Shown here: positions 115 through 31,479 of the stretch, in pieces | How positions within the stretch are numbered: position 1 is the first letter of the stretch | Layout: every line of letters starts with the position of its first letter | Virus record (IMG/VR): IMGVR_UViG_3300021387_000688 | DNA length: 64,000 nucleotides | Reading direction: 5' to 3' (one strand) | Origin: a virus | Lineage: Duplodnaviria > Caudoviricetes | The notes under the pieces: model-generated | What the model saw: only the letters and a program-made list of their open reading frames with translations | Databases searched by the model: none | What the model was told of the DNA's origin: nothing | Position numbers and translations under genes: made by a program

Positions 115-173
115 GTAGCATAGCAATGTTCCTATTTTTTCTATTTTAAGCAAAGATTTATACATTCCGCTAC
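115..173 (+). ncRNA. Bulged-stem scaffold RNA copy 1
   Basis: GTAGC-ATA-GCAATGT-TCCTATT...TAT-ACATTC-C-GCTAC; divergent member of a six-copy family. Confidence 0.6.
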
Positions 174-195
174 TTTTTATATTAGGAGTTAGAAA

Positions 196-672
196 ATGCC
201 AAGATTGTTAAAAGAAAGTGATAGAGCTTTAGCAATGAGAAGAGCTCAATCGATGATGGGTTCTAGAGCACCTATGGGTGGAAGTCCAATGGGATTTGGT
301 TTTGATGCAAACGATCCTCAATCTTTGAAAAGAGGATTGATGTTAATGCAGCAACAACTTAAAGATATGGAAGCCCATCCAAATAGATACATTCAAGCCA
401 TGAAAAATGGAGTATGTGTCGCAGGTTTTGGCGGAGACCTGTTCGGAATCGAGGTTCCAGAAACTTTGATGTATGGTGAAGTTCCTCCAGGAGTAACTCC
501 AGCTCAGGCTTTCCAGCAGGTTATTGATTACATGAGGCAAGTAATTGAAGCCGCTAGAAACAAGTTAGGTGGACCAGCTTCTAATAGAACTGCACTCAAA
601 GCACCTCCAAAAATGTTGGAGAGCATTGATAGATTGATTATTAGTACAGGATCTTGGGGATCTGTAAAGTAA
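196..672 (+). CDS. Hypothetical protein with N-terminal LKES motif (possible head-internal protein)
   Basis: AGGAG RBS, 158 aa, ACTAAATA motif upstream. Confidence 0.7.
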   Translation: MPRLLKESDRALAMRRAQSMMGSRAPMGGSPMGFGFDANDPQSLKRGLMLMQQQLKDMEAHPNRYIQAMKNGVCVAGFGGDLFGIEVPETLMYGEVPPGVTPAQAFQQVIDYMRQVIEAARNKLGGPASNRTALKAPPKMLESIDRLIISTGSWGSVK

Positions 673-681
673 AAAAATAAC

Positions 682-809
682 ACTGCATAAGTTGTTCCTA
701 TTTAAAAGTATAATTTGCAGAGTAGCTTAATCGGTTAGAGCAACCCACTAAGTGGGAAGATAAGAGTTCGAATCTCTTCTCCGCAGCCAGGTTTTATACA
801 ACTCGCAGT
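682..809 (+). ncRNA. Scaffold RNA copy 2 enclosing a tRNA-like insert
   Basis: ACTGC-ATA-AGTTGT-TCCTATTT...TAT-ACAACT-C-GCAGT flanks a cloverleaf. Confidence 0.75.
716..789 (+). tRNA. tRNA-like RNA with collapsed anticodon loop (no assignable anticodon)
   Basis: D arm GCTT/GAGC, T arm AAGAG-TTCGAAT-CTCTT, encoded CCA; anticodon arm CCCAC-TAA-GTGGG. Confidence 0.65.
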
Positions 810-859
810 TTTTTCATATAACCTTTTTGATCCCTCCTTGCTAAATAATCCCTATAATA

Positions 860-1305
860 AAATTGATAACAACTTGACGGAGTAGAGTCAAGTTTACTAA
901 AAACCTACTCAATTGAGAAAGCAAACTCTAAACTCGTTGGAAAACTTCTAGTGTAGCGTGAATACCTAGAATCGTAACTATTGCGTTGGTATCTATAAGA
1001 CGAAGGTAGAGGAAGTTCCTCTCGCCATTAAAGTGGTACGTGGAAAGCGTATAGCGAGCAAGTTTGAAGTATACGTCGGCTAAAGAGCAAAGATACCTAT
1101 CTGGGACTCTTAGAGGTAGGTACCATAAAAGCCGCATAAGGGTTAAGATTCGATCTACCTTATTCGAATCTGTTGACAGTTTTACCAAGTTGGTCCCTCG
1201 GAAGCCTTGAGAGTGCCGCGGTAGAGTAGAATGCGAGAGCCTTAACGGGACTGCATTTCAGGCGCTGAATACTATGGCAAATAGAAAAACTGCGGGGTTA
1301 AAATT
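860..1305 (+). ncRNA. Putative large structured ncRNA
   Basis: No credible ORF, raised GC, successive hairpins (AACTTGAC/GTCAAGTT, GAGGA/TCCTC, TACCTA/TAGGTA, AGATTCGA/TCGAATCT); strand inferred from context. Confidence 0.45.
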
Positions 1306-1390
1306 ATATAAGGGAATATCCCTTTTGTTTTGTTTTGCCTCTCTACAACGGGTCATGCCGGTAGGGAGGATTATTTTTTAAAGGTGGTTT

Positions 1391-1615
1391 ATGATAGATA
1401 AATCAAAATTGCCAAATTGGATAGGAGTATGGGAAAGAAAAAGCCCGACTTCTAATGCATGGATTAACAAATCTATAATTGCATTAGTCAATGACGACAA
1501 TGTACATTTTGGAATTGCTAAACCTGCAGGAGCTTCTATAAAAAAGGTTTTTTGTTTTTCTAATGAAGACGTTATAAGAGCTATAAAAAGTTTTAGCTTA
1601 AAGAAACCTGAGTAG
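1391..1615 (+). CDS. Hypothetical protein
   Basis: AAGGTGG RBS, 74 aa. Confidence 0.55.
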   Translation: MIDKSKLPNWIGVWERKSPTSNAWINKSIIALVNDDNVHFGIAKPAGASIKKVFCFSNEDVIRAIKSFSLKKPE

Positions 1616-1642
1616 AAGCTATATTAAATTATATTGAACATT

Positions 1643-1719
1643 AGTGCATAAGTTGTTCCTATTTTTAAAGAAGGATACTGGATCCAGGGCGACCTGGATG
1701 ATTATATACAACTCGCACT
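1643..1719 (+). ncRNA. Scaffold RNA copy 3 (GNRA hairpin cargo)
   Basis: AGTGC-ATA-AGTTGT-TCCTATTT...ATCCAGG-GCGA-CCTGGAT...TAT-ACAACT-C-GCACT. Confidence 0.75.
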
Positions 1720-1728
1720 TTTATATTT

Positions 1729-1801
1729 GGTCCCTTAGGCGAGTGGCTAAGCCGTCTCCCTCTCAAGGAGAAGATCACGCGTCCGAATCGCGTAGGGACT
1801 A
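1729..1801 (+). tRNA. tRNA-Glu(CTC)
   Basis: Cloverleaf; TCTCC-CTCTCAA-GGAGA; T loop TCCGAAT. Confidence 0.9.
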
Positions 1802-1815
1802 TAGGATGGTAGGTT

Positions 1816-2226
1816 ATGGACAGAGAACATCGTTTAAAGAAATCACCTATTTACATTTTTTACGCAGATACAGAATCTGGCTACCTACCTATTACTCAAA
1901 AGGGTTTTGATGAAAACAAAACTCTCGGTATATGTTTCAATCCAGAGTACTTTTATGATAAGTACAATCACCGAATCCACACAAAGATTATGTTTTACGG
2001 TGTAAGGAAGAATGTAAGCAATTTTGGACAATATGTACAGATTCATTTGGACCACATTAAAGGGGATATCCAAAAGTATTTTGCAAAACATGGAATAGAA
2101 GGAACTATTCATTATTGCAGAGCAAACTCCAAAAGTTGCCCATTCGGAGTAAGTGCAGTCGATATTGAACGTTACAGAAATAAATCGGCGGACAGATTGA
2201 TGCACTTAAATATTTACGTAAAGTAA
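1816..2226 (+). CDS. Hypothetical protein
   Basis: 136 aa ORF with RBS-like AGG. Confidence 0.6.
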   Translation: MDREHRLKKSPIYIFYADTESGYLPITQKGFDENKTLGICFNPEYFYDKYNHRIHTKIMFYGVRKNVSNFGQYVQIHLDHIKGDIQKYFAKHGIEGTIHYCRANSKSCPFGVSAVDIERYRNKSADRLMHLNIYVK

Positions 2227-2228
2227 TA

Positions 2229-2478
2229 TACCTACAGGAGTCAGTACTTTCACCTAGAATTATACTGAAGGGTCCTTCAACTGATTTATAGTTGGGTAGT
2301 TAGGTGTATATCAAGGAATCTGTGTAGGATTGGGTCGCCCACGGAATTCGGCGCCAAACCCCTAAGAGATTTGTTTATGGTAAGTAGTCGACGTTTTAGT
2401 GGTTCCGCACAAACTAGACGCCCATAATGGAACGGTGCATCTAAACTACATTGCCGGTTCGATACCGGTAGTAGGTAA
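2229..2478 (+). ncRNA. About 250-nt structured RNA with tRNA-like acceptor stem and T arm
   Basis: TACCTAC/GTAGGTA closing stem, GCCGG-TTCGATA-CCGGT T arm, long internal helix and possible pseudoknot. Confidence 0.55.
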
Positions 2479-2492
2479 TTACATATATTTCA

Positions 2493-2522
2493 ACCCCTCT
2501 CGTGAAAGAGGGGTTTCTTTTT
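2493..2522. terminator. Intrinsic terminator between convergent units
   Basis: AACCCCTCT/AGAGGGGTT hairpin followed by T tract. Confidence 0.7.
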
Positions 2523-3537
2523 ACTCTTGAATGTAAGTTGTGTTTCTTCCTGCGTGTTTAGCAGCGTATAGATATGAGTCTAATGTTTTTATATTATCTT
2601 CTAATGAAACTCCATCCTTCCAAAAACAACCTCCTACGGAAATAGTGAATGGAGCTTTTATACTATCTTCTACTCTTGAAAGAGTTAGTATTTTAACTCT
2701 TATATCTTCTGCAATTACTTTTAATTTGTTAAAGTTGGACATTCCTTTTAATACAATAATGAATTCTTCCCCACCGTATCGTATAATTAAATCACCATAC
2801 CTTATACAACTCTTTACAGTTTTAACTAAGAATCTTAAACTTTCATCCCCATTTAAGTGACCATGTTCGTCATTAATTTTTTTGAAGAAATCAATATCAA
2901 TCATTAAAAGACCAGAATCTTTTAAGTTATCTTTACTTAATGCACATCTGTTTTTACAACCGGTTAAAGGATCTATACAAGCTTGATTTTCCAATTTGTT
3001 GTTTATAGTTATCAACGCCTGGGTTGCAAAAGTAACTGAGAATAAAGTAAATACATAAGAAGAAGAGACACCGCCTAATATGAACATTAAGTTTCTTTCC
3101 ATATAATCACTTGGCATGTTAATATGGAAATGCACTTTAATTATTAGAATAACCATTGCAAAGAATAAAGGAAAGATTCCCATCACTGAAAGTATTACGT
3201 TCTTATATCCTACTAATCCAAAAGCCGAACCTAAGATAATCCAATATGTTATGAAAACTGCATCTCTACTTGTAAATAACATTGCTGGAAAAGATATAAA
3301 TGCAGTTACTAAAACTACTAAACAACTATATGCATAATACTTTTTAAGTTTAATCATAATTGCACCTGAAAGTACTATGAAAGTCCAACTAGTTACGTTA
3401 GCAATAAAGTTAACTAATGTAAGTAAGTCTAAATTAAACCCTCTCTGCATAATAATCGGAATCGCGAATCCGTTGGATACTGCACCACAAATTAAGAGAG
3501 TAATAGCTATTAGTTTATCAATATTTTTGTTTCCCAT
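2521..3537 (-). CDS. Membrane-bound diguanylate cyclase (GGDEF domain)
   Basis: Multiple N-terminal TM segments; DPLTG..NR, DIDFFKKINDEHGHLNGD, RYGGEEF, RxxD I-site. Confidence 0.92.
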   Translation of the reverse strand: MGNKNIDKLIAITLLICGAVSNGFAIPIIMQRGFNLDLLTLVNFIANVTSWTFIVLSGAIMIKLKKYYAYSCLVVLVTAFISFPAMLFTSRDAVFITYWIILGSAFGLVGYKNVILSVMGIFPLFFAMVILIIKVHFHINMPSDYMERNLMFILGGVSSSYVFTLFSVTFATQALITINNKLENQACIDPLTGCKNRCALSKDNLKDSGLLMIDIDFFKKINDEHGHLNGDESLRFLVKTVKSCIRYGDLIIRYGGEEFIIVLKGMSNFNKLKVIAEDIRVKILTLSRVEDSIKAPFTISVGGCFWKDGVSLEDNIKTLDSYLYAAKHAGRNTTYIQE

Positions 3538-3605
3538 TTTAGTAATTTTTATTCCTCTGATTCTCTATATTGTAATATACAATATAATAAGTGGAGGTAT
3601 TATCG

Positions 3606-4271
3606 ATGGCACACAACTTTCAAAAAATCTATGCACCGTTTGGTCGTAAGAATCCAAACGATCGTCTTGTAGACACATCAATTTATTCTCGGGGCTGGGT
3701 TCAGATGTTTTACGAAAACAATGTAAAGATGAAGGCATCTGAAAAGATTGACGGAACTTCTGTAGGTATTGTTTGGGATGGAGAAAGAATCTCCTTCATT
3801 GGACATACAGAAAAGTCTCAGTTTGCTCCTCGTTATCTTGAATATCTTAACAGCCGTTTTGGTACTCCTGAATTCGAATCTGTAGTAGAAGAGATTGCAG
3901 GTGACAAAAAGGTTACAATCTACGGTGAAGGTATCTCAAAGGATTACAATGTTCACTACGGTTTCCCAGATGGTGAATTTATCCTTTACGATATCCAGAA
4001 AGAAGATGGTACATTCTGGTGCCGCGAAGCTGTTGCAAGTGTAGCTACAAAACTTGGCATGATTATGCCTTGGGAAACAGATATGACTATTCAGGAAGCA
4101 ATCGACTTCGTAAAGACTCGTCCAGCATCTAAGCTTAATCCTGAAAACAAAATGGAAGGTTTGGTACTTCGTTCACCAATTGAACTTTACAGCGCTAATC
4201 ATTTTGAGCGCATTATTTGTAAAGTTAAGGTAAAGGATTTCGTAGACCTTAAGGATTACAGGACTGAGTAA
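3606..4271 (+). CDS. RNA ligase (Rnl2-like nucleotidyltransferase)
   Basis: Motif I EKIDGT, YGE, EGLVLR, C-terminal CKVK. Confidence 0.8.
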   Translation: MAHNFQKIYAPFGRKNPNDRLVDTSIYSRGWVQMFYENNVKMKASEKIDGTSVGIVWDGERISFIGHTEKSQFAPRYLEYLNSRFGTPEFESVVEEIAGDKKVTIYGEGISKDYNVHYGFPDGEFILYDIQKEDGTFWCREAVASVATKLGMIMPWETDMTIQEAIDFVKTRPASKLNPENKMEGLVLRSPIELYSANHFERIICKVKVKDFVDLKDYRTE

Positions 4272-4369
4272 TGAACATTACTGAAATCTTAATCTATACA
4301 GGGCTTAACATTAAGCCCTTAGTAAATATTTTTGATAAGAAAATCTTAAATTGGTAGGAGAAAAAAAAT

Positions 4370-4648
4370 ATGAAAACTTTTGTTAAAGAATTTAATTATC
4401 CAGATTCAAAGACAGGAGAAGCAAAGGCTCGCCGCCTTTTGGTATTGAATGAAGATGCAACTCGCTTTGGTGGAATCGACCTTTCTACTGTAACTCCAGA
4501 AGAAGAAGCAACTCTTGTAAAGAATTTTGCAGAAAGAGATATTACAGATTTTTCTCGCAAGCCAAAAACAGAAGGACTTGAAGAAAAACCTACCCCAAAA
4601 ATTGGAATGTATAAAGCGTTCTCTAAATCTAAGATCTTGGAGTCATAA
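4370..4648 (+). CDS. Hypothetical protein
   Basis: AGGAG RBS, 92 aa. Confidence 0.7.
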   Translation: MKTFVKEFNYPDSKTGEAKARRLLVLNEDATRFGGIDLSTVTPEEEATLVKNFAERDITDFSRKPKTEGLEEKPTPKIGMYKAFSKSKILES

Positions 4649-4649
4649 G

Positions 4650-5015
4650 ATGGATGAAGAAATTTCTAATGCAAAAATCGTTGGCACCAAATTAGGATTC
4701 GATGACCATGGCTTCTTCACATTTAGTATTGCAGTAGAAGGAGATGGCTTTGGATGTAACCTAGGAGGATATGCATTATCCTGTTATGATAAAGCCACAC
4801 TTAAACGTAAAGGTTCTGAATACGGATTGAATGTTATTATGCGCATACTTGAAGTCGTTGGAGTAGAACATTGGGAAGATCTTAAAGGCAAATATGTAAG
4901 AGTAACCCATAGTGGTCCAGGTTCAACTATGCATACCATTGGTAATATCATTAAAGATGAATGGATTGATTTCAGAACCTATAGAGAAGGATTAGAAGAT
5001 GGCGACGAGGGTTGA
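4650..5015 (+). CDS. Conserved phage hypothetical protein
   Basis: GGAG RBS; tightly packed operon. Confidence 0.7.
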   Translation: MDEEISNAKIVGTKLGFDDHGFFTFSIAVEGDGFGCNLGGYALSCYDKATLKRKGSEYGLNVIMRILEVVGVEHWEDLKGKYVRVTHSGPGSTMHTIGNIIKDEWIDFRTYREGLEDGDEG

Positions 5016-5298
5016 AAAGGATCAATATACAAGATGGTGGGTTGAAGGAGATGAACTACATGCTAGTTTTGCAGATTATGTAGTTTTCATAAAACCAGAT
5101 ACTCGTATGAAGTTTCCTCACGATGCCGGAATCGTATATTTTATCACTTTTAGTAAAGGATCTGGTTATCCATGGATAAAGCCTATTAAAAAAGATACTT
5201 TGGAAGAAGCCATTCAATTCGTACACGAATATGAAGATCAGAAAAAATATGATCAATTAATGGACGCTTTAATTAAAGATGGTTATTTAGAAAAGTAA
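4999..5298 (+). CDS. Hypothetical protein
   Basis: Overlapping start/stop, 99 aa. Confidence 0.65.
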   Translation: MATRVEKDQYTRWWVEGDELHASFADYVVFIKPDTRMKFPHDAGIVYFITFSKGSGYPWIKPIKKDTLEEAIQFVHEYEDQKKYDQLMDALIKDGYLEK

Positions 5299-5358
5299 TC
5301 ATTCTCTATATTACTTAAACCTATTACTGATAGCTAGTACTATCATAAGGAGTTGAAT

Positions 5359-6081
5359 ATGTCTAGACATACAGGTAAATGCGATTTTGAAGATTGGTGC
5401 GAAATGCATAATTCTCCTTCAGAAATCGTAGAAAAAGCAACAATCTACCTTGGGGACGCCAAAGTAGATATTAAAAATGAAAAGGATTTAATTCCTTATT
5501 ACACTCACCTTATTGCTTCAATGTGTTGCATTAAAGATGAAGGCCAAACTATAAACCTTTCAAGTCATTCTTTTATTGACGGTGAAGAAGAAGAATTTAT
5601 GACTTGGAGAATCAGAGATGTCATTGCAGCCGCCAGAAAAGCAAAGAAAGAAAAGAAACCCTTCACTTTTGAATATTTCAAAAATTGGAAATACTATGAT
5701 CCTTTTGGATCTACCCCTCAGTTTGTTTGGGAAGAGTTGATTAAAATAGTTAACGATAATCCTGATATTATTAAGATGCATCTCCCTTCTGATTACAGAG
5801 ATTGTGAGTATTTTATGCACAGGTGGGTTATTCCTAAATACTTTTACAAAGTTCACGATCCAATGCACAATAGATACCGCGAAGAGTTTATCAAGTTTGC
5901 AAAAGAAAATGGCTATTCTGTACTCGAACCTAGAGACAAAGGTATCCAGAATGCCGAAAGAACTGAAGGAATTGCACATCCAGTAATTACTCATATGTGC
6001 ATTGCTGTAATTGATTTTTATGAAATGCAGAATCGTTTTGATTACAAATCAAGTGAAGAAGCTTACAATATAGGTGGGTAA
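5359..6081 (+). CDS. Hypothetical protein
   Basis: AAGGAG RBS, about 240 aa. Confidence 0.75.
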   Translation: MSRHTGKCDFEDWCEMHNSPSEIVEKATIYLGDAKVDIKNEKDLIPYYTHLIASMCCIKDEGQTINLSSHSFIDGEEEEFMTWRIRDVIAAARKAKKEKKPFTFEYFKNWKYYDPFGSTPQFVWEELIKIVNDNPDIIKMHLPSDYRDCEYFMHRWVIPKYFYKVHDPMHNRYREEFIKFAKENGYSVLEPRDKGIQNAERTEGIAHPVITHMCIAVIDFYEMQNRFDYKSSEEAYNIGG

Positions 6082-6082
6082 A

Positions 6083-6298
6083 ATGGAAGTAACAGAAGAG
6101 CAGTTGAACCAGCTTTATAAAAATGTAAGTATTGCAATGAAAAACTTTCCTCAATTAAGATATGGCCAGGCTATGTTCAATGAAGCGCATTCTTTGTGGC
6201 CAGAGGAAGTAAATAAGATTAGGGGAACTAATGATGACTGTTTTTACAACGATGATTTAGTTTCTAAGTTTTTATCTCATTTTGAATTAAAGAGGTAG
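6083..6298 (+). CDS. Hypothetical protein (LRYGQ motif)
   Basis: Operon packing. Confidence 0.65.
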   Translation: MEVTEEQLNQLYKNVSIAMKNFPQLRYGQAMFNEAHSLWPEEVNKIRGTNDDCFYNDDLVSKFLSHFELKR

Positions 6299-6301
6299 TG
6301 T

Positions 6302-6595
6302 ATGCCAAAACATAATGATCTTGAAGAAGTACAGAATCTAGAAATTAATGGATTCGAATTTACAAAAGATGTGCAGACCGATGTAAACACTCAAACTTAT
6401 GCAAGAGGTGGAGATGCTTATGCAGATGATTGGATTGAAATTATTCCAGATATGTCAGGTACTCCTCACCGTTATGTTGTAAGGTTTATTAAAGACTGTT
6501 CCGATATTGGGGTATATGTTTACGATTGGGCTCCAGATAAAAGTATTAAAGAATGGCTCAATGAAAAAATTGGAATGTATTACAAGGAGGATTAA
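6302..6595 (+). CDS. Hypothetical protein
   Basis: GAGGT RBS. Confidence 0.65.
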   Translation: MPKHNDLEEVQNLEINGFEFTKDVQTDVNTQTYARGGDAYADDWIEIIPDMSGTPHRYVVRFIKDCSDIGVYVYDWAPDKSIKEWLNEKIGMYYKED

Positions 6596-7189
6596 ATGTT
6601 TTATCCTAATGGCAGTTATAGACTTGATCAGTTGATTAGAGATTTCGAAAGCGGGGACTTCGATATCTATCTTGAAAAGAATATAGAGACTCCAAAAGAT
6701 TGGGACCCATCTAAGGGATTTCCTAGAGGACCAAGAACCCTTATCAAAACAATGGATGAATTAAAAGACGCCGTTATAAAAGATATGGGAAAAGAATATA
6801 CAATTTGTATCGATACTCGCCCTTCTTATTTTGAAAAACATCCATATGAAGGAGAAGAGAAATCTTATATTAAAGAAATCTTCAAATGGGAATATTCTTC
6901 ACCTTGGGGAGAAAAGAGATGTTATGCAATTAGAGATAGTTCTTATCTTCCAGGATATGAACCTAAACATAAATCTCTTAGTCTTGATTGTTACGAAGAT
7001 GGATTCCAGGGAACTTGTTTCTCAATTGGTACTTGGGAAAGAGATAGTGAAGGTTATGAATTTAGGTCTGTAGGTAACAGACTTTTCAAATATGTAGATC
7101 TTAGGGACATTGTCATTCTTTGGAAGGCAATTCATGCAGCTAATAATTACTTGGAAGAAAGATTCAAGGAAGAAAAGGACGAAGACTAA
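6596..7189 (+). CDS. Hypothetical protein
   Basis: GGAGG RBS, 197 aa. Confidence 0.7.
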   Translation: MFYPNGSYRLDQLIRDFESGDFDIYLEKNIETPKDWDPSKGFPRGPRTLIKTMDELKDAVIKDMGKEYTICIDTRPSYFEKHPYEGEEKSYIKEIFKWEYSSPWGEKRCYAIRDSSYLPGYEPKHKSLSLDCYEDGFQGTCFSIGTWERDSEGYEFRSVGNRLFKYVDLRDIVILWKAIHAANNYLEERFKEEKDED

Positions 7190-7617
7190 TGAAAGTTTAC
7201 CTTAGTGGACCTATCTCGACTGATAAGGAACATTACAAAGAACATTTTGCAGCCGCAGAAAAGTATTTAACTGAAAAAGGTTATGAAGTAACAAACCCTG
7301 CCAAAGATGAATACGATGATGAAATCTATGAAAAAGGTCATACAGATAAATGGACTTTAGATGCCTGGCTCGATTATATGAAAAGAGATATCGAACTTAC
7401 TTCTAAACATGACGCCATTTGCCTTTTAGTAGGTTGGCGTGATAGTCCAGGTGCTATTATCGAACTCATGACTGCAAAGAAGTTTGGGCTTGAATTGATA
7501 GAAGAGTCCAAGTTTACTCCTTCTATAAAAAGAGAATACGAATACTATTCTAGAGGTAAGGAATGGGAAGTAATTGATATGCCTATAAAATCAAAAGGAA
7601 GAAAAAAGGAGATTTAA
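7189..7617 (+). CDS. DUF4406 / nucleoside 2-deoxyribosyltransferase-like protein
   Basis: KVYLSGPIS, NPA, DAICLL.GW..SPGA..E motifs. Confidence 0.75.
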   Translation: MKVYLSGPISTDKEHYKEHFAAAEKYLTEKGYEVTNPAKDEYDDEIYEKGHTDKWTLDAWLDYMKRDIELTSKHDAICLLVGWRDSPGAIIELMTAKKFGLELIEESKFTPSIKREYEYYSRGKEWEVIDMPIKSKGRKKEI

Positions 7618-7618
7618 G

Positions 7619-7897
7619 ATGCAGGATGCAACAAAAGAACCTAAAATGTTTAAGAAGAAACCGGTATCGATTCGGGCAATGAAATGGACCGGAAAGAACA
7701 TTGATGAGATTACAGTTTTTTCAAAAGGCGATGCTTTTTTGGACGGAGATGAACTTGTAATTAAAACATTGGAAGATGGTAAAACAGGAAAAGCAAAGCA
7801 TGTGGCTTCGGTAGGGGATTATATTATTGAAGGTGTACATGGAGAGTTTTATTTCTGTAAACCAGACATCTTTGAAGAAACTTACGAAGATGCATAA
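7619..7897 (+). CDS. Conserved phage protein (KKPV..GDYII.G..GEFY.CKPDIF family)
   Basis: Recognisable family motif. Confidence 0.7.
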   Translation: MQDATKEPKMFKKKPVSIRAMKWTGKNIDEITVFSKGDAFLDGDELVIKTLEDGKTGKAKHVASVGDYIIEGVHGEFYFCKPDIFEETYEDA

Positions 7898-7900
7898 AAA

Positions 7901-7946
7901 GAAAACATTTTAGAAAACTTAACCGTTTGCACTAACTATATTAAGA
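7901..7946 (+). promoter_or_regulatory. Conserved promoter box of tRNA array 1
   Basis: 42/46 nt identical to 10146-10191. Confidence 0.75.
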
Positions 7947-7968
7947 TATGTTAAAAGGAGACAGAAAT

Positions 7969-8088
7969 ATGATGTTTATATCAAACGAAACATTTGAAAC
8001 ACTGATTGTAACACAGAATCATATGTCTGGCCTTTTTTCAGGCTCGAAAGGGTTCCGTTCCCTTACACAGGGAGGAAAATCCGATTAG
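7969..8088 (+). CDS. Leader peptide 1 (39 aa; Gly/Ser/Leu/Gln/Arg-codon rich)
   Basis: AAGGAG RBS; MMFISNETFETLIVTQNHMSGLFSGSKGFRSLTQGGKSD; stop abuts antiterminator. Confidence 0.8.
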   Translation: MMFISNETFETLIVTQNHMSGLFSGSKGFRSLTQGGKSD

Positions 8089-8140
8089 GGGTTTCTTACA
8101 GTTAAGGAATTGTAAGGAACTCGAAAGAGTTCCTTTTTTT
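8089..8140 (+). terminator. Attenuator 1: antiterminator 8089-8122 versus terminator 8114-8140
   Basis: GGGTTTCTTACAGTT/AATTGTAAGGAACTC overlaps AAGGAACTC-GAAA-GAGTTCCTT-T tract. Confidence 0.85.
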
Positions 8141-8156
8141 ATTCCTTTTTAATTTT

Positions 8157-8230
8157 GCGGGTGTAACTCAGATGGCTAGAGTGTCGTCCTTCCAAGTCGA
8201 ATGTCAAGGGTTCGAATCCCTCCACCCGCT
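8157..8230 (+). tRNA. tRNA-Gly(TCC)
   Basis: Cloverleaf, loop CTTCCAA. Confidence 0.92.
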
Positions 8231-8236
8231 CTTTAT

Positions 8237-8308
8237 CGCGTAGTCATTCAGTGGCTAGGATCTCTGTCTTCCAAACAGGTGACGAGGGTTCGATTCCCTC
8301 CTGCGCGA
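8237..8308 (+). tRNA. tRNA-Gly(TCC)
   Basis: Cloverleaf, TCTGT-CTTCCAA-ACAGG. Confidence 0.88.
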
Positions 8309-8316
8309 CTATATAT

Positions 8317-8390
8317 GTCTCATTAGTGTTAGCGGCTTAGCACCCTAGTCCTCCAAACTGGGAGCATCGGTTCGAATCCGATATGGGGCT
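8317..8390 (+). tRNA. tRNA-Gly(TCC), C33
   Basis: Cloverleaf, loop CCTCCAA. Confidence 0.85.
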
Positions 8391-8393
8391 TGG

Positions 8394-8476
8394 TACATAA
8401 AGGTTTCGTTTAGAAGATTGCTGCACCTTTAAGCAGGCTGAAACGAATAGAAACTGAATCGAAAGATTCTAATGTA
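8394..8476 (+). ncRNA. Pseudoknotted spacer RNA
   Basis: TACAT/ATGTA, TTCGTTT/AAACGAA, loop ACCTTTA complementary to TAAAGGT, GAATC-GAAA-GATTC. Confidence 0.45.
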
Positions 8477-8502
8477 GGAGTAAGCATAAGAATCTTATGA
8501 AT

Positions 8503-8576
8503 GCCTCGGTACTCCAACTGGCAGAGAGGACGGACTTAGAATCCGTAAAGTGAGAGTTCGAATCTCTCTCGGGGCA
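8503..8576 (+). tRNA. tRNA-Leu(TAG), short variable loop
   Basis: ACGGA-CTTAGAA-TCCGT; 5-nt variable region. Confidence 0.88.
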
Positions 8577-8582
8577 AATTAT

Positions 8583-8667
8583 GGAGCCTGGCTAGGACGG
8601 TAATAGGTATGCCTGGAAAGCATATGGTCGCGAAAGCGCCTAAAGGGTTCGACCCCCTTAGACTCCG
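8583..8667 (+). tRNA. tRNA-Ser(GGA)
   Basis: TATGC-CTGGAAA-GCATA, long variable arm, G73. Confidence 0.88.
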
Positions 8668-8682
8668 TAGGAGGGAAATTAT

Positions 8683-8778
8683 ATGAAAGGTAAACTTCAC
8701 AAACTGTGGGTTAAGTTTGTAATAGGGATTGTTTATATTTATATAAAAATCACTAATATCTTTCATAAGAAAAAATAG
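8683..8778 (+). CDS. Small cationic/hydrophobic peptide (31 aa)
   Basis: AGGAGG RBS; MKGKLHKLWVKFVIGIVYIYIKITNIFHKKK. Confidence 0.5.
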   Translation: MKGKLHKLWVKFVIGIVYIYIKITNIFHKKK

Positions 8779-8785
8779 AATTTAT

Positions 8786-8870
8786 GGATCGTTAAGTTAG
8801 CGGCTATACAGGGTGACTTGAAATCACTTTACGTGGCAACACGGCGCAAGTTCGAGTCTTGCACGATCCG
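8786..8870 (+). tRNA. tRNA-Ser(TGA)
   Basis: GGTGA-CTTGAAA-TCACT, long variable arm, G73. Confidence 0.88.
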
Positions 8871-8885
8871 CTCTAATTAAAAAAG

Positions 8886-9069
8886 TTGGGTAAACCTCGA
8901 CCCAGTTGGATTCCTTCCTGAATAGGATTCAATGTTAAGGACTAGAGGAATTTACAGAAACTGCTTTAAGTAGCAAGTTCTCGAAAGATCGTTTATTCCC
9001 CCTCCCTAAAACGATTGAGTAGCTTTACGAGTGAATATAAGGGGTAGCTCTAAGTGGGTCAGGCCACTC
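8886..9069 (+). ncRNA. Putative multi-pseudoknot ncRNA
   Basis: Hairpins TTGGGT/ACCCAG, GATCGTTT/AAACGATT, AGTGG/CCACT with loop segments complementary to downstream GAGG, AAGGA and AGGGG. Confidence 0.4.
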
Positions 9070-9077
9070 CCTGTTAT

Positions 9078-9148
9078 GTACCTGTAGTATAACGGTAATA
9101 CGCGACCTTGCCAAGGTCGAGTCGAGGGTTCAACTCCCTTCAGGTGCT
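9078..9148 (+). tRNA. tRNA-Gly(GCC)
   Basis: CGACC-TTGCCAA-GGTCG. Confidence 0.92.
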
Positions 9149-9150
9149 CT

Positions 9151-9230
9151 AAATCAAAATGGCCAGGGAGCCCTAACGGATGCTGGGCGGCTTAATGATG
9201 TTACTGAATGGTGGTAACCCATTTTGATTT
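9151..9230 (+). ncRNA. Structured spacer RNA
   Basis: 12-bp closing stem AAATCAAAATGG/CCATTTTGATTT around CCAG/CTGG with GAGCC:GGCTT pseudoknot potential. Confidence 0.5.
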
Positions 9231-9238
9231 AATTTTAC

Positions 9239-9310
9239 TCCTCCGTGGTGTAATTGGTAACACGCGAGATTCTGGTTCTTGAATTCTGGGTTCGAGTCCT
9301 AGCGGAGGAA
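9239..9310 (+). tRNA. tRNA-Gln(CTG)
   Basis: CGAGA-TTCTGGT-TCTTG. Confidence 0.9.
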
Positions 9311-9358
9311 AGCACATTTGCCGAGGCCTACTAGCGAAACGAAGAGACGGCAATCTTG

Positions 9359-9440
9359 GAGGAGTAGTGAAAAATGGTTGTAGGGATAAGGAACTTCTGT
9401 TGCCGCGGAAAAACAAGAGTGGGTTCGATTCGCCACCCTC
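9359..9440 (+). pseudogene. Degenerate tRNA-like sequence
   Basis: T-arm-like GTGGGTTCGATTCGCCAC and TTCTG/CGGAA arm; D arm and acceptor defective. Confidence 0.35.
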
Positions 9441-9448
9441 GGAATTAT

Positions 9449-9522
9449 GGGATCGTAGCATAACTGGATAATGCACATGTCTACGAAACATGCGATTGGG
9501 AATTCGAATTTCCCCGATCCCA
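9449..9522 (+). tRNA. tRNA-Arg(ACG)
   Basis: CATGT-CTACGAA-ACATG. Confidence 0.9.
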
Positions 9523-9558
9523 CTATAAGGAGATTTGCTTATGAAGTTTCATTAGGAT

Positions 9559-9804
9559 ATGTATAGAAGATATCCTAAAAAACAAGATCACGGTACACGT
9601 GGATCAAAAAGCGAGTCATTGCTCTATTGGGGCAATTATAAGAAGGGTCTAAGATTATCTGCAAAGGAATATTTTAGACAATATAAGCATAGAGTTAAAC
9701 AAGCTCTAAAAGTAATTACTATTGAATGTACTGACGAAGAAGTTGAAGAATTCTATTTAAGGAGTCAGCATCGGGTTCAGGATCAATGGTATGAATTTGA
9801 TTAA
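9559..9804 (+). CDS. Small basic protein preceded by in-frame mini-ORF MKFH-TAG (9541-9555)
   Basis: 81 aa; the strong RBS sits in front of ATG 9541. Confidence 0.6.
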   Translation: MYRRYPKKQDHGTRGSKSESLLYWGNYKKGLRLSAKEYFRQYKHRVKQALKVITIECTDEEVEEFYLRSQHRVQDQWYEFD

Positions 9805-9807
9805 AGC

Positions 9808-9930
9808 ACTTGCGACCTAGTCAAGTATAAAAGTACATTAGGCGGCACTAATCGATCTGCCATAGAAATGATCGAGAGACCTTTGACAGTTAAAACGGAG
9901 AAGTCAATAGTAATATTGTTAAACTGTCAA
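9808..9930 (+). ncRNA. Pseudoknotted spacer RNA
   Basis: ACTTG/CAAGT hairpin with loop CCTAGT complementary to ATTAGG; TCGATC/GATCGA; TTGACAGTT/AACTGTCAA. Confidence 0.4.
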
Positions 9931-9936
9931 TATTAT

Positions 9937-10018
9937 GCTTCAGTGGTGGAATTGGTATGCACACCTGTTTAAGGGGCAGGCGCCGAAAGGATTGAGAGTT
10001 CGAATCTCTCCTGGAGCA
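9937..10018 (+). tRNA. tRNA-Leu(AAG)
   Basis: CCTGT-TTAAGGG-GCAGG, long variable arm, A73. Confidence 0.85.
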
Positions 10019-10028
10019 CTAATTTATA

Positions 10029-10156
10029 AAAATGTTTTCAAAGTGCCTAACGCAACACCGACGCGCTATGCGGGAGCGAGGAGTAAAATAAAGCAGTCCT
10101 ATGTAAGTAGGAAACAGGCAACGGTAACGATCCTGGTGGAATGTTGAAAACATTTT
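10029..10156 (+). ncRNA. Structured spacer RNA
   Basis: 13-bp closing stem AAAATGTTTTCAA/TTGAAAACATTTT, TGCCT/AGGCA, GTAA tetraloops. Confidence 0.5.
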
Positions 10157-10191
10157 AGAAAAATTAACAAGTTGCACTAACTATATTAAGA
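10146..10191 (+). promoter_or_regulatory. Conserved promoter box of tRNA array 2
   Basis: 42/46 nt identical to 7901-7946. Confidence 0.75.
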
Positions 10192-10247
10192 ATATAAGTT
10201 TTAAGTAACTTGTAAACAAAGACTTGATATAAAGGAGTATGTATATT

Positions 10248-10364
10248 ATGATGAACGTATTTAACACTACAACTAAAACAACTACAAAGCATAATCATAT
10301 GAATATGCATACATTCACAAACACAAATAAATTTTTCTTTAATAAGAAAAATGGAGTGAGTTAA
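10248..10364 (+). CDS. Leader peptide 2 (38 aa; Thr/Asn/Lys/Phe/Met/His rich)
   Basis: AAGGAG RBS; MMNVFNTTTKTTTKHNHMNMHTFTNTNKFFFNKKNGVS; stop lies inside the antiterminator. Confidence 0.85.
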   Translation: MMNVFNTTTKTTTKHNHMNMHTFTNTNKFFFNKKNGVS

Positions 10365-10423
10365 GTCTTTTAATTTTATCCGAATTTTAGAAGGCTTAAC
10401 TCGAAAGGGTTAAGCCTTTTTTT
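10358..10423 (+). terminator. Attenuator 2: antiterminator 10358-10402 versus terminator 10391-10423
   Basis: GAGTTAAGTCTTTTAA/TTAGAAGGCTTAACTC overlaps AAGGCTTAACTC-GAAA-GGGTTAAGCCTT-T tract. Confidence 0.85.
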
Positions 10424-10437
10424 ATTGGATTTTTTAT

Positions 10438-10523
10438 GCTACAGTCGCATAGTGGTTGATTGCACCGGATTTGTAATCCGGTAGGTTTATAGCCTCGCGG
10501 GGGTTCGAATCCCTCCTGTAGCT
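10438..10523 (+). tRNA. tRNA-Thr(TGT) with long variable arm
   Basis: CCGGA-TTTGTAA-TCCGG, GCU/AGC acceptor, AGGT/GCCT variable stem. Confidence 0.82.
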
Positions 10524-10526
10524 TAT

Positions 10527-10596
10527 AAAAGCACAAGTTGTTCCTATTTGCTGATGAAGCAATACACTGTTAATGTATTTGATACAACTCGCTTTT
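10527..10596 (+). ncRNA. Scaffold RNA copy 4 carrying an Asn(GTT) anticodon stem-loop
   Basis: AAAAGC-ACA-AGTTGT-TCCTATTT...AATACA-CTGTTAA-TGTATT...AT-ACAACT-C-GCTTTT. Confidence 0.75.
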
Positions 10597-10604
10597 AATT
10601 TTAT

Positions 10605-10679
10605 GGTGCCTATGGTGGAGTGGTCTAACACGCTTGACTGTGGATCAAGATTTCGTCGGTTCGAACCCGACTAGGTACC
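10605..10679 (+). tRNA. tRNA-His(GTG)
   Basis: G-1:C73, CTTGA-CTGTGGA-TCAAG. Confidence 0.92.
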
Positions 10680-10693
10680 CTCAAATGTAATTT

Positions 10694-10767
10694 GGTCCGT
10701 TAGCTCTAATGGTCAGAGCGGATGCCCGTTAAGCATATGGTTGCAGGTTCGAGTCCTGCACGGACCG
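10694..10767 (+). tRNA. tRNA-Asn(GTT), C33
   Basis: Loop CCGTTAA, G73. Confidence 0.88.
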
Positions 10768-10777
10768 TATATTTTAT

Positions 10778-10852
10778 GCTACGTTAGCTCTTAACGGCTA
10801 GAGCGCCTGACCTGTAATCAGGATGTTGGGGGTTCGAATCCCTCACGTAGCT
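10778..10852 (+). tRNA. tRNA-Thr(TGT), C33
   Basis: CCTGA-CCTGTAA-TCAGG. Confidence 0.88.
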
Positions 10853-10859
10853 TATTTAT

Positions 10860-10930
10860 CCGCAGGTCGCCTAATGGTAAGGCCTCTGACTGAAGATCAG
10901 AAGTTTGGGGTTCGATTCCCTGTCTGCGGG
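10860..10930 (+). tRNA. tRNA-Phe(GAA), G37/G73 variant
   Basis: TCTGA-CTGAAGA-TCAGA. Confidence 0.8.
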
Positions 10931-10935
10931 CTTAT

Positions 10936-11009
10936 GTTGAGGTAGCAAAGTTGGTCAATTGCGATGGACTGAAAATCCATTGATGTGAGTTCGATTCTCA
11001 CCCTCAACA
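10936..11009 (+). tRNA. tRNA-Phe(GAA)
   Basis: ATGGA-CTGAAAA-TCCAT. Confidence 0.9.
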
Positions 11010-11015
11010 ACGCAT

Positions 11016-11090
11016 GCTACTTTAGCTCAAATTGGTTAGAGCACGAGTTTCGTAAACTTGGGGTTACAAGTTCGAATCTTGTAAGTAGCT
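11016..11090 (+). tRNA. tRNA-Thr(CGT)
   Basis: CGAGT-TTCGTAA-ACTTG. Confidence 0.9.
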
Positions 11091-11108
11091 TGATAAGGAG
11101 ATTTTTTT

Positions 11109-11276
11109 ATGGATTGTGGAGCTCCAAGAATTGAAGGTCCAATGGCTAAAAAGGTTTATGAATACATGATTAATGAATCTGAAAAAGCCAAAGCCAATAA
11201 AGAATCTAGAGAGGAAAAACGAAAGAAACGTTTAAAGGAATTTGAAGAACTTATGAAGAAGAAACAGAGGGCTTAA
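11109..11276 (+). CDS. Small charged hypothetical protein (55 aa)
   Basis: AAGGAG RBS; MDCGAPRIEGPMAKK...KKKQRA. Confidence 0.6.
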   Translation: MDCGAPRIEGPMAKKVYEYMINESEKAKANKESREEKRKKRLKEFEELMKKKQRA

Positions 11277-11344
11277 CCTTCTATTCAGCCCATTGGAATT
11301 GAAGGTGCCCAGATTAGATGGAAAAGACATTTTCAATTTTTAAT

Positions 11345-11419
11345 GGACTACTAGCGCAACTTGGTTAGAGCACGTGCCTTTTAAGCATGGGGTTCTGGGT
11401 TCAAATCCCAGGTAGTTCA
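11345..11419 (+). tRNA. tRNA-Lys(TTT)
   Basis: CGTGC-CTTTTAA-GCATG. Confidence 0.9.
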
Positions 11420-11434
11420 CTTCCGATTTATTTC

Positions 11435-11507
11435 GGGCCCGTAGCTCAATTGGCAGAGCAATACACTTTTAATGTATGGGTCGACAGTTCGAATCTGTCC
11501 GGGCTCA
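11435..11507 (+). tRNA. tRNA-Lys(TTT)
   Basis: ATACA-CTTTTAA-TGTAT. Confidence 0.92.
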
Positions 11508-11521
11508 CTTCGATTTTATAT

Positions 11522-11596
11522 CGGCCTGTAGCGCAACTTGGTTAGAGCGAGTGCCTCTTAAGCATTAGGTTCTGGGTTCAAATCCCAGCAGGCTGA
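11522..11596 (+). tRNA. tRNA-Lys(CTT)
   Basis: AGTGC-CTCTTAA-GCATT. Confidence 0.9.
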
Positions 11597-11603
11597 CTTA
11601 TTT

Positions 11604-11682
11604 GGGCCTTTGTCAGAATGGGATTGGAACACACTTTTAATGTGTCGCGAAAGCAGAGCGGGTTCGATTCCCGCAGGGCTCA
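11604..11682 (+). tRNA. tRNA-Lys(TTT) with extended variable arm
   Basis: ACACA-CTTTTAA-TGTGT followed by GC-GAAA-GC arm. Confidence 0.8.
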
Positions 11683-11684
11683 AC

Positions 11685-11766
11685 GGGCCATTGATCGCAG
11701 AATGGGATTGCAACAGACTCTTAATCTGTTTCTTCGGAAGACTAGGTTCGATTCCTAGATGGCTCA
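11685..11766 (+). tRNA. tRNA-Lys(CTT) with extended variable arm
   Basis: ACAGA-CTCTTAA-TCTGT followed by TC-TTCG-GA arm; extra nt before D stem. Confidence 0.75.
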
Positions 11767-11827
11767 TCAAAAGTAAGTAGAGTTCTCGAGACAACGCTTA
11801 CTATATTTAATTTGAATTTGATATATG

Positions 11828-11900
11828 CAGCTTATAGCTCAACTTGGTAGAGCCGTGGCCACTTAATTACGGGTTGGAGGTTCAAATCCTTCTAAGCTGC
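11828..11900 (+). tRNA. tRNA-like RNA with aberrant anticodon arm (CTT-containing 8-nt loop)
   Basis: Good acceptor, D and T arms; CGTGG-CCACTTAA-TTACG. Confidence 0.6.
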
Positions 11901-11920
11901 CTTATACAAATATGATATAT

Positions 11921-11992
11921 GGGTCCTTCGTATATCGGTTAGTACTGCAGACTGTTAATCTGCGTGGGTAGGTTCGACTCCTACAGGACCCG
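11921..11992 (+). tRNA. tRNA-Asn(GTT)
   Basis: GCAGA-CTGTTAA-TCTGC, G73. Confidence 0.9.
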
Positions 11993-11999
11993 CTAAAAT

Positions 12000-12127
12000 A
12001 AAATTGCACAAGTTGTTCCTATTTTTTAGGCTCATAACCCGAAAGCGGTGGTTCGATTCCATCTCCCCTTGTCTTCGTAAGGGGATAGTGTAGTGGTAGC
12101 ACGGCGTATTATACAACTCGCAATTTT
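12000..12127 (+). ncRNA. Scaffold RNA copy 5 carrying a circularly permuted tRNA (Y RNA/YrlA-like topology)
   Basis: Order: CAT anticodon loop, T arm, acceptor TCCCCTT-loop-AAGGGGA, D arm, all inside the scaffold stem. Confidence 0.75.
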
Positions 12128-12131
12128 TTAT

Positions 12132-12204
12132 GCTGGGTAAGTTCATATGGTTGAACGCCGCCCTCATAAGGCGGATGTACGTGGTTCGAGTCCACGACTC
12201 AGTA
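12132..12204 (+). tRNA. tRNA-CAT (Met or Ile2)
   Basis: CCGCC-CTCATAA-GGCGG. Confidence 0.85.
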
Positions 12205-12210
12205 AATTAT

Positions 12211-12281
12211 GCTAGCTTCGTACAGTGGTAGTACACATGCATGGTAAGCATGTAATGAGGGTTCGATTCCCCCAGTTAGCT
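12211..12281 (+). tRNA. tRNA-Thr(GGT)
   Basis: CATGC-ATGGTAA-GCATG. Confidence 0.85.
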
Positions 12282-12283
12282 CT

Positions 12284-12343
12284 AATGCATAAAGTGTTCC
12301 TATTAAAAACTTGACTGAAAATCAATTGTATACACTTCGCATT
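12284..12343 (+). ncRNA. Scaffold RNA copy 6 carrying a Phe(GAA) anticodon stem-loop
   Basis: AATGC-ATA-AAGTGT-TCCTATT...TTGA-CTGAAAA-TCAA...TAT-ACACTT-C-GCATT (compensatory changes). Confidence 0.75.
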
Positions 12344-12382
12344 TTTCTATTCTTTTAAGGGGCCGGCGGCCCCTATTTTTAT

Positions 12383-31462: not shown

Positions 31463-31479
31463 AATTTATTCCTTATATA

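Follow-up and report, generated by a model that had tools for sequence, protein, structure and literature searches.

Handle RNAs with exchangeable cargo in phage tRNA arrays and their linkage to a protein with a TerD-fold domain

We analyzed a 64,000-nt stretch of viral DNA (Duplodnaviria; Caudoviricetes; IMG/VR record IMGVR_UViG_3300021387_000688), referred to at its full length as the window. It carries six copies of an element that we call the handle, in which two paired helices and a set of invariant unpaired bases enclose a variable insert, the cargo. The motif recurs in phage and bacterial DNA, its pairing and orientation point to an RNA of tRNA sense more than to a DNA site, and at many loci it lies next to a gene for a large protein, here called X. 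We propose, with moderate confidence in the model as a whole, that X binds the handle so that the cargo is displayed, and that the pair is a counterpart of Ro60 and Y RNA in the conflict over tRNA damage and repair. No description of the handle motif or of X turned up in the literature, and neither is found in Rfam 15, Pfam, PHROGs, or NCBIfam.

Results

Six handle copies in the window

All six occurrences of the 9-mer GTTCCTATT in the window are on the + strand and inside the first 12.4 kb. Reading the sequence around each occurrence revealed the same order in all six copies: outer stem, GC, AYA, a 6-bp stem, UCCUAUU, cargo, AU, the 6-bp complement, C, GC, and outer stem. We also built a covariance model, R1, from 62 short-cargo copies from other phages (alignment A2), none of them from the window. 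R1 nevertheless finds the window copies, and elsewhere in the window it gave just three weak matches on the − strand (E 0.8–8.5). A preliminary description of this DNA, made from the letters alone, had proposed a six-copy repeat of this architecture and a covariance model as a check; the 9-mer count, the sequence reading, and the independent model all bear it out.

The first three copies, all on the + strand as are the others, are interspersed with small open reading frames (ORFs) and one tRNA-Glu. Copy 1 (core 115–173; R1 match 110–178, 45.4 bits, E 1.6e-10) has the outer stem GUAGC/GCUAC, AUA, and UCCUAUU; its inner stem is degenerate with one base inserted, and its 32-nt cargo is AU-rich and not tRNA-like. 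Copy 2 (682–809) was delimited by the structural scanner, the fold, and an R1 match that is only partial (677–726, 17.5 bits) because its cargo is long. This cargo is a whole tRNA-like body at 716–789 (+), called tRNA-Leu with anticodon UAA by ARAGORN and tRNA by Rfam (716–786, 50.6 bits), with an atypical anticodon arm and an encoded CCA at 787–789. It is the only cargo in the window that passes the RF00005 gathering score, and the handles themselves have no tRNA score. Copy 3 (1643–1719; R1 match 1638–1724, 42.7 bits, and fold) holds a GNRA-type hairpin (7 bp, loop GCGA) and an AGGA that could pair with UCCU.

The handle copies are placed like tRNA units. Of the other three, copy 4 (10526–10597; R1 match 10523–10600, 41.8 bits) lies 2 nt past tRNA-Thr and 8 nt ahead of tRNA-His, and its cargo consists of a D-arm-like hairpin, a single A, and an anticodon stem-loop (5 bp, 7-nt loop) with GUU. 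Copy 5 (12000–12127; R1 match 11998–12129, 37.4 bits) lies between tRNA-Asn and tRNA-Met. Its cargo runs from a mini hairpin with a CAU loop through a variable region, a T arm, and a 7-bp acceptor with an 8-nt closing loop to a D arm, which is a permuted tRNA order with the topology of YrlA. Copy 6 (12284–12343; R1 match 12279–12348, 46.2 bits) begins 1 nt past tRNA-Thr, carries a GAA anticodon-type stem-loop, and has the covarying inner stem AAGUGU/ACACUU.

Covariation favors an RNA made from the tRNA-sense strand

Copies of the motif in phage and bacterial DNA were gathered by pattern scans of IMG/VR and with the structural scanner; the number of distinct copies rose from 79 to 203 and then to 310 and depends on the motif definition used. 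A contig, which may be as long as 501 kb, usually bears several of them. A 14-mer scan of viral contigs returned mostly chance matches. The family consensus reads outer stem, GC, A-N-A, N4-GU, UCCU(A), cargo, U, AC-N4', C, GC, and outer stem'. The outer stem is typically 3–4 bp and up to 9 bp long, and ANA is mostly AUA, AAA, or ACA. The handle thus comprises two invariant G-C pairs, a 3 × 1 internal loop (ANA opposite C), a 6-bp stem, and an unpaired UCCUA; in the 6-bp stem the first four pairs vary freely and the last two are always GU/AC.

Because the scanner demands pairing of the inner stem, this stem was retested without that demand. The nearest downstream AC-N4-CGC was fully complementary for 185 of 222 5' halves, compared with 23 on average and at most 39 in 1000 shuffles of the partners, and the stems comprised 66 different 4-mers. 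The outer stem was never imposed by the scanner. Its three pairs beside the GC were formed in 61, 61, and 49 of the 62 copies of the alignment, with AU, UA, GC, and CG all represented. The covariation score was 0.562 against 0.209 for shuffled partners; none of 500 shuffles reached the observed score, which collapsed when the partners were slid. Both helices covary across the family, and the earlier view of a covarying structured element with invariant unpaired bases is supported.

Among the cells that are not Watson-Crick pairs, G.U occurred 34 times and A.C four times; the excess of G.U places the pairing on the tRNA-sense strand and therefore favors an RNA over a DNA site. In genome loci carrying the gene for X, all 100 R1 matches (80 loci) were on the strand of that gene, and the copies in phage loci share the strand of the tRNAs and are 2–10 nt from those beside them. 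Different inner stems coexist inside one genome; the compensation is therefore not simply that of two ends fitting one protein. The preliminary description had left room for a DNA site, and the wobble bias and the strand bias both point to RNA.

Several known RNA elements were compared with the handle. Rfam, searched both at the gathering score and at E ≤ 1, returned only tRNAs and sub-threshold noise, with no ribozyme. A terminator scan of the window called sites at 12358–12374, 10389–10420, 8114–8135, and 1310–1324 and none of the handles, and the 3' flanks across the family are not uniformly T-rich; handles as operon terminators were rejected accordingly. The canonical terminator at 12358–12374 is a separate element downstream of copy 6. 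A k-turn was rejected because no tandem G.A follows the bulge, a T-loop because the equivalent of A58 is absent, and a hammerhead because the CUGAUGA in the copy 4 cargo is a conserved hairpin loop that GAAA does not follow.

The handles are linked to the gene for protein X

ORF clustering over 29 handle-bearing loci revealed one recurrent family, X, in 11 loci, and in all 11 the X gene was immediately downstream of the handle array on the same strand. In the reverse direction, loci were fetched from IMG/VR by X alone. At 66 of the 75 viral loci with enough upstream sequence, one to seven handles were present within 700 nt upstream of X on the same strand, and 54 copies in the IMG/VR loci ended within 50 nt of the X start codon. 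Handles also occur downstream of X in several loci. A survey of prokaryote genomes (one per species) yielded 313 stretches encoding X. In the best 80 of these, R1 found handles in 70, nearly all just upstream of the gene. Within flanks of 3–4 kb, no other gene was conserved beside X in either viral or genome loci.

Cultured carriers of X include Chryseobacterium sp. ON_d1, C. rhizosphaerae KCTC 22548, and Ktedonobacter racemifer DSM 44963. Further carriers are multi-megabase chromosomal contigs and many rumen contigs binned as Selenomonadaceae, although contigs binned into metagenome-assembled genomes may be phage DNA. The complete phage G001 (424 kb) has eight handles, of which one is directly upstream of X and most are in the tRNA region; those distant from X lie at 320 kb and at 414–423 kb. 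In the complete phage G007 (225 kb), both of the two handles are upstream of X. In L091, the nearest relative among the loci compared, the cargo of copy 4 stands directly upstream of X.

X combines a helical-repeat domain with a TerD fold

X is about 630 aa long (about 580–700) and consists of an N-terminal helical-repeat domain and a C-terminal domain of the TerD fold. A profile search matched 2041 clusters (50% identity), and for 1186 the E value was 1e-30 or lower. Six members matched no Pfam family at E ≤ 0.01, including PF02342, and X had no match in PHROG, PADLOC, or PDB sequences; weak matches below threshold were to the NCBIfam RING_SCO0854 family (far below) and to PADLOC Cas11e. No long fused forms were found, and the longer members carry no extra domains.

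The C-terminal domain matched 2kxt, 3ibz, 2qng, and 2qz7 in Foldseek at probability 1.0, and comparison by VIA likewise returned the TerD fold with Z 10.7 (140 aa, root-mean-square deviation [rmsd] 3.2) and Z 9.8. In a related Atlas cluster, 22% of the members carry PF02342. The acidic motifs DLDLS and SGDxTxA..A.E are conserved in positions that resemble the calcium sites of TerD. The N-terminal ~400 residues gave a confident helical-repeat model (predicted local distance difference test score 90.5), for which Foldseek and Atlas returned only the X family itself and no significant structural neighbor. The only long alignments of this domain were to Ro60 (1yvp_A, 241 aa, Z 6.0, rmsd 6.8; phage phiLo Ro60 9l5y_B, 208 aa, Z 6.0), yet these scores are within the background for helical proteins. 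Matches to botulinum toxin were dismissed as long alignments of low probability. The structure searches returned no recombinase or nuclease fold.

Cargo is exchangeable and in part tRNA-shaped

Across the 310 copies the median cargo is 31 nt, and some two thirds consist of short, AU-rich sequence with no structure. The interchangeability of cargo noted in the preliminary description holds across the family. Its further claim that cargo is mostly tRNA-derived holds in the window (four of six) but not in the family, where most cargo is short and not recognizably tRNA-like.

The remainder includes clear tRNA parts. Canonical hairpins with a 7-nt loop (U33, R37) occur in 80 of the 310 cargos, where 27 would be expected. 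Roughly one in four is a T arm; the others have loops of the anticodon type, most often GUU. A T loop is present in 37 cargos. Signatures of both T and D loops were detected in 28, of which five have the normal order and 23 are back to front, running from a T arm through an acceptor closed by a 4–10-nt loop to a D arm. Among the short cargos, the trinucleotide UGG, often within UUGGA, is enriched 8–11 nt before the 3' strand of the inner stem, with 65 against 23 expected (e.g. L299:3845–3907 and L287:3674–3737), and could pair with the UCC of UCCUA to form a third helix or an alternative conformation.

The cargo of copy 4, which shares the stem of the window tRNA-Lys at 11435, is kept in L091, L120, and L122 with a compensatory change from GCU/AGC to GCC/GGC. 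This conservation with compensation indicates that cargos are under constraint.

All six whole-tRNA cargos inspected encode a 3' CCA a few bases ahead of the 3' strand of the handle (window 682–809; L120:2204–2326; L187:3608–3717; L189 1488–1598 on the − strand in scanner coordinates; L210:623–732; L118:2531–2648). The array tRNAs Thr (10438–10523) and His (10606–10680), whose 3' ends are the two that were read in the window, have no encoded CCA.

RNA-repair genes are found near handles and X

In phages, handle modules lie in or beside tRNA arrays; L148, for example, has a run of 34 tRNAs, three handles, and X in that order. In Chryseobacterium, rtcB, handles, and X follow one another in this order on one strand. 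An RtcB gene is present within 3–4 kb of X in seven of 160 loci, which belong to unrelated lineages. Other genes that recur near X encode a CCA-adding enzyme (five loci), RlaP (four loci), and a calcineurin-like phosphoesterase (six loci). The window itself encodes an RNA ligase (3591–4271, +; PF09414, E 6.9e-14) between its two handle clusters, which is context and implies no action on the handles. L151 encodes a homolog of this ligase beside its handles and X, and L279 has one near X. Co-occurrence with RtcB and RNA ligase genes, one of the checks proposed at the outset, was thus detected in a minority of loci, whereas co-occurrence with TROVE/Ro was not, either among the large ORFs of the window or in five phage records with handles and X. 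These neighbors are minority associations, and all point to tRNA and RNA repair.

Surroundings of the handles and RNA contigs

The window is phage-like and contains 29 tRNA genes according to ARAGORN, and tRNA was the only Rfam family matched in it. Apart from a match to a tRNA fragment, megablast of the window against INPHARED found no relative. The sequencing runs that contain it derive from gut samples of sheep and other ruminants.

Among assembled metatranscriptome contigs, we found no back-joined handles; the single joint that goes back reflects a difference in gene order in a relative. In RNA run X17, a contig of depth 139.9 has a joint with a 20-nt side onto 1646–1665, and in X18 there is a loose end at 1665. 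The hint from these two runs that RNA libraries contain handles of relatives with other cargo is too weak to count. In X15, contigs of a related phage join 12346 to 1, and several tRNAs are skipped or replaced; the order and content of the tRNA and handle array therefore differ among close relatives.

Some other features were recorded. The region 773–1324 comprises ~500 nt of intergenic sequence with no ORF, and contigs from two metatranscriptomes of different studies cover it at depths of 80.6 and 27.7 against ~3–5 around it. It ends at a terminator-like hairpin (1310–1324), has no Rfam match, and has a folding z-score of just −0.59; it is a candidate for an abundant large non-coding RNA. The tRNA at 11828–11901 has an 8-nt anticodon loop, a four-base anticodon ACTT in ARAGORN, and an Rfam tRNA score of 40 bits, and is possibly a frameshift suppressor or another non-standard decoder. 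In L088, a 501-kb phage contig with handles and X, a tRNA at 1739–1810 (−) has a CUA anticodon of the amber suppressor type, which hints that this phage recodes a stop codon. In the window, 2521–3537 (−), located between the handle clusters, encodes 338 aa with a GGDEF diguanylate-cyclase domain (E 1.5e-30). Outside the clusters, 29180–35576 (−) encodes three tandem paralogs of 615–760 aa with BspA-type leucine-rich repeats.

Discussion

A model for the handle and X

What was observed is a motif with covarying helices, a bias to one strand, and linkage to X; from this we infer the processing of the RNAs, their binding by X, and their role. The six elements would be genes for small handle RNAs that are transcribed together with the phage tRNA arrays. 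Discrete RNAs of ~60–130 nt may be freed when the flanking tRNAs are processed, presumably by the same tRNA-processing enzymes. Each would form a long hairpin with swappable cargo at its distal end. The invariant core, that is, the GC pairs, the ANA/C loop, the GU/AC pairs, and UCCUA, is most likely the binding site of X. X would grip the handle while the RNA presents its cargo, such as anticodon stem-loops, T arms, CCA-bearing tRNAs, or tRNA bodies with closed acceptors. The setting in tRNA arrays and the neighboring genes for RtcB, RNA ligase, the CCA-adding enzyme, and RlaP suggest a particle that acts in the conflict over tRNA damage and repair. Such a particle might mimic tRNA to lure or sense anticodon nucleases, or serve repair enzymes as a platform, and X may repress its own translation through the handle nearest to its start codon.

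Several observations weigh against this model. X is not encoded in the 64-kb window, and a word look-up for X in this genome gave no match. The case for binding of the handle by X is one of synteny, and we know of no RNA-binding role for TerD domains. The display of tRNA mimics fits only part of the family, about two thirds of the cargos being featureless. RtcB is rarely adjacent to X, as the count above indicates, and is missing from three of five X-bearing phage records. The RNA data are assembled contigs, which give no handle ends, strand, or level. The close spacing between many handles and the X start codon also fits a leader.

That last point belongs to a reading that we regard as unlikely, in which the handle is purely cis-acting, as a leader, a riboswitch-like aptamer, or a processing site (e.g. 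for RNase III/E) for X and the tRNA precursor. Every copy is co-oriented with X, the invariant unpaired bases could serve as a ligand or nuclease site, and T-rich sequence follows many of the window copies. However, a single gene can have as many as seven tandem copies with differing cargos ahead of it, and other copies are far from X inside tRNA arrays, both in the window and in G001. The conserved, tRNA-shaped cargos, the handles downstream of X, and the separation of canonical terminators such as that at 12358–12374 from the handles also speak against it.

We give a distinctly lower probability to a signal for processing or circularization, by a small ribozyme or a nuclease-plus-ligase site, that would excise the cargo and turn permuted tRNAs through circles into working tRNAs. 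This is the route known from permuted tRNA genes of the Cyanidioschyzon merolae type, in which leader and trailer form a bulge-helix-bulge that the splicing endonuclease cuts and a normal tRNA is rebuilt. As in those genes and in archaeal ones, the 3' half precedes the 5' half in the permuted cargos and a short linker joins the acceptor ends. Permuted bodies are recurrent (23 cases), RNA ligases (PF09414, RtcB) are encoded nearby, and the helices are flanked by invariant unpaired nucleotides. In contrast to the C. merolae type, the flanks form an asymmetric motif: both bulges (ANA and UCCUA) are on the 5' strand with a single C opposite, and there is no bulge-helix-bulge. In copy 5 and its relatives, end joining does not restore an anticodon stem of 5 bp, since their hairpin of the anticodon type is whole before any joining and has just 2–3 bp. 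Most cargos are not tRNAs, no Rfam ribozyme was matched, and no handle among the assembled RNA contigs was back-joined.

Least credible is a DNA-level element, either a folded single-strand recombination site like attC of integrons or a miniature mobile element that shuffles cargo cassettes at palindromes: the multiple dispersed copies, the cassette-like inserts, a structure conserved more than its sequence, and cargo apparently copied from neighboring tRNA genes (as for the stem of copy 4) would suit it, but the wobble bias fits sense-strand RNA, the orientation is strictly that of the tRNAs and X, no conserved integrase or transposase stands alongside, X has neither a recombinase nor a nuclease fold, and the outer stems are inverted repeats instead of direct target duplications.

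Implications

If X does bind and display handle RNAs, this would be a second system of a protein with tRNA-mimic RNAs, unrelated in sequence to Ro60/Y RNA and comprising at least 1186 clusters of X and hundreds of RNA copies. It would connect the large tRNA arrays found in giant phages with RNA-repair genes and with an RNA-protein module of their own, and would bear on why phages carry many tRNAs and how they withstand tRNA-cleaving defenses. The presence of the module in cultured bacteria makes the hypothesis directly testable. The handle would also be a natural modular RNA scaffold that tolerates inserts of 15 to 140 nt or more. A wider proposal, which we offer only tentatively, is that X and the handles constitute a new and widespread class of ribonucleoprotein in megaphages, smaller phages, and free-living bacteria, evolved independently of Ro60/Y RNA and parallel to it. 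In this proposal one protein-binding handle presents an exchangeable set of tRNA parts that would divert, detect, or help mend attacks on tRNA, and the TerD domain perhaps links the particle to a metal or nucleotide signal.

Comparison with known systems

A survey of RNA repair in jumbo phages mentions TROVE, RtcB, Rnl1/2, and stand-alone TerD proteins but neither X nor the handle (PMC7824862). With the TerD family (PF02342; PDB 2kxt, 3ibz, 2qz7), X shares the beta-sandwich; unlike members of that family, it is not scored by the Pfam TerD model, has no ter operon context, and possesses a 400-aa helical N-terminal domain unknown in Ter proteins. The phage T4 stable RNAs, species 1 and 2 (rnaC, rnaD), lie between tRNA genes and are released by tRNA-processing enzymes. 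The handles would be like them in being small non-tRNA RNAs between phage tRNA genes. The T4 species have no known function, no known sequence or structural relation to the handles, no linked protein family, and no modular cargo.

The closest parallel is with the bacterial Y RNAs YrlA and YrlB (RF02553), which associate with Ro60/Rsr, as in the Salmonella rsr-yrlBA-rtcBA operon (Chen et al., 2014, PMC4201824; Hughes et al., 2020, PMC7790460). In both systems, small RNAs are encoded at most a few hundred bases from the gene for a large protein, on the same strand, and that protein is RNA-associated in the case of Ro60. A protein-binding stem, presumed for the handles, is joined to a tRNA-like module, several paralogous RNAs are present per locus, and rtcB is an occasional neighbor. 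Copy 5 has the order of YrlA: variable region, T arm, loop-closed acceptor, and D arm. The YrlA-type domain (T arm, loop-closed acceptor-like stem, D arm) is present in this copy and in 23 other cargos and lacking in the other five window copies.

The differences are equally distinct. The features of Y RNA membership were taken from PMC4201824. Of these, the Rsr-binding motif GNCGAAN0-1G (or a GGUCCGA-like form), which in Y RNAs occupies the 5' strand of the stem, is absent from the six window copies and, by regular expression, present in five of 310 cargos, which is the chance level. The gathering score of RF02553 (69 bits) was not reached, the matches being of 22–25 bits and on tandem tRNAs instead of handles. 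The motif therefore differs from that of Y RNA, as first stated, and the earlier observation that no TROVE gene is visible in the window agrees with the scan of its large ORFs. Whereas Y RNAs are encoded no more than about 4 kb from a TROVE-domain Ro60 gene on their own strand, PF05731 (TROVE) was also absent from five phage records with handles and X, two of them complete, and was detected in the controls D. radiodurans and B. thetaiotaomicron. X has a C-terminal TerD fold where Ro60 has a vWA domain. Compared with that of Y RNAs, the cargo of the handles is far more varied and mostly not tRNA-like, and the copies are embedded in tRNA arrays. The likeness to Y RNA first noted thus stands for the union of a handle with a tRNA-like module beside a protein gene and sometimes rtcB, but not for Ro60/TROVE as the partner. 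Because TROVE/Ro60 and the Y RNA motif are absent, the handle and X would by analogy be a counterpart of the Ro60/Y RNA system and not a member of it.

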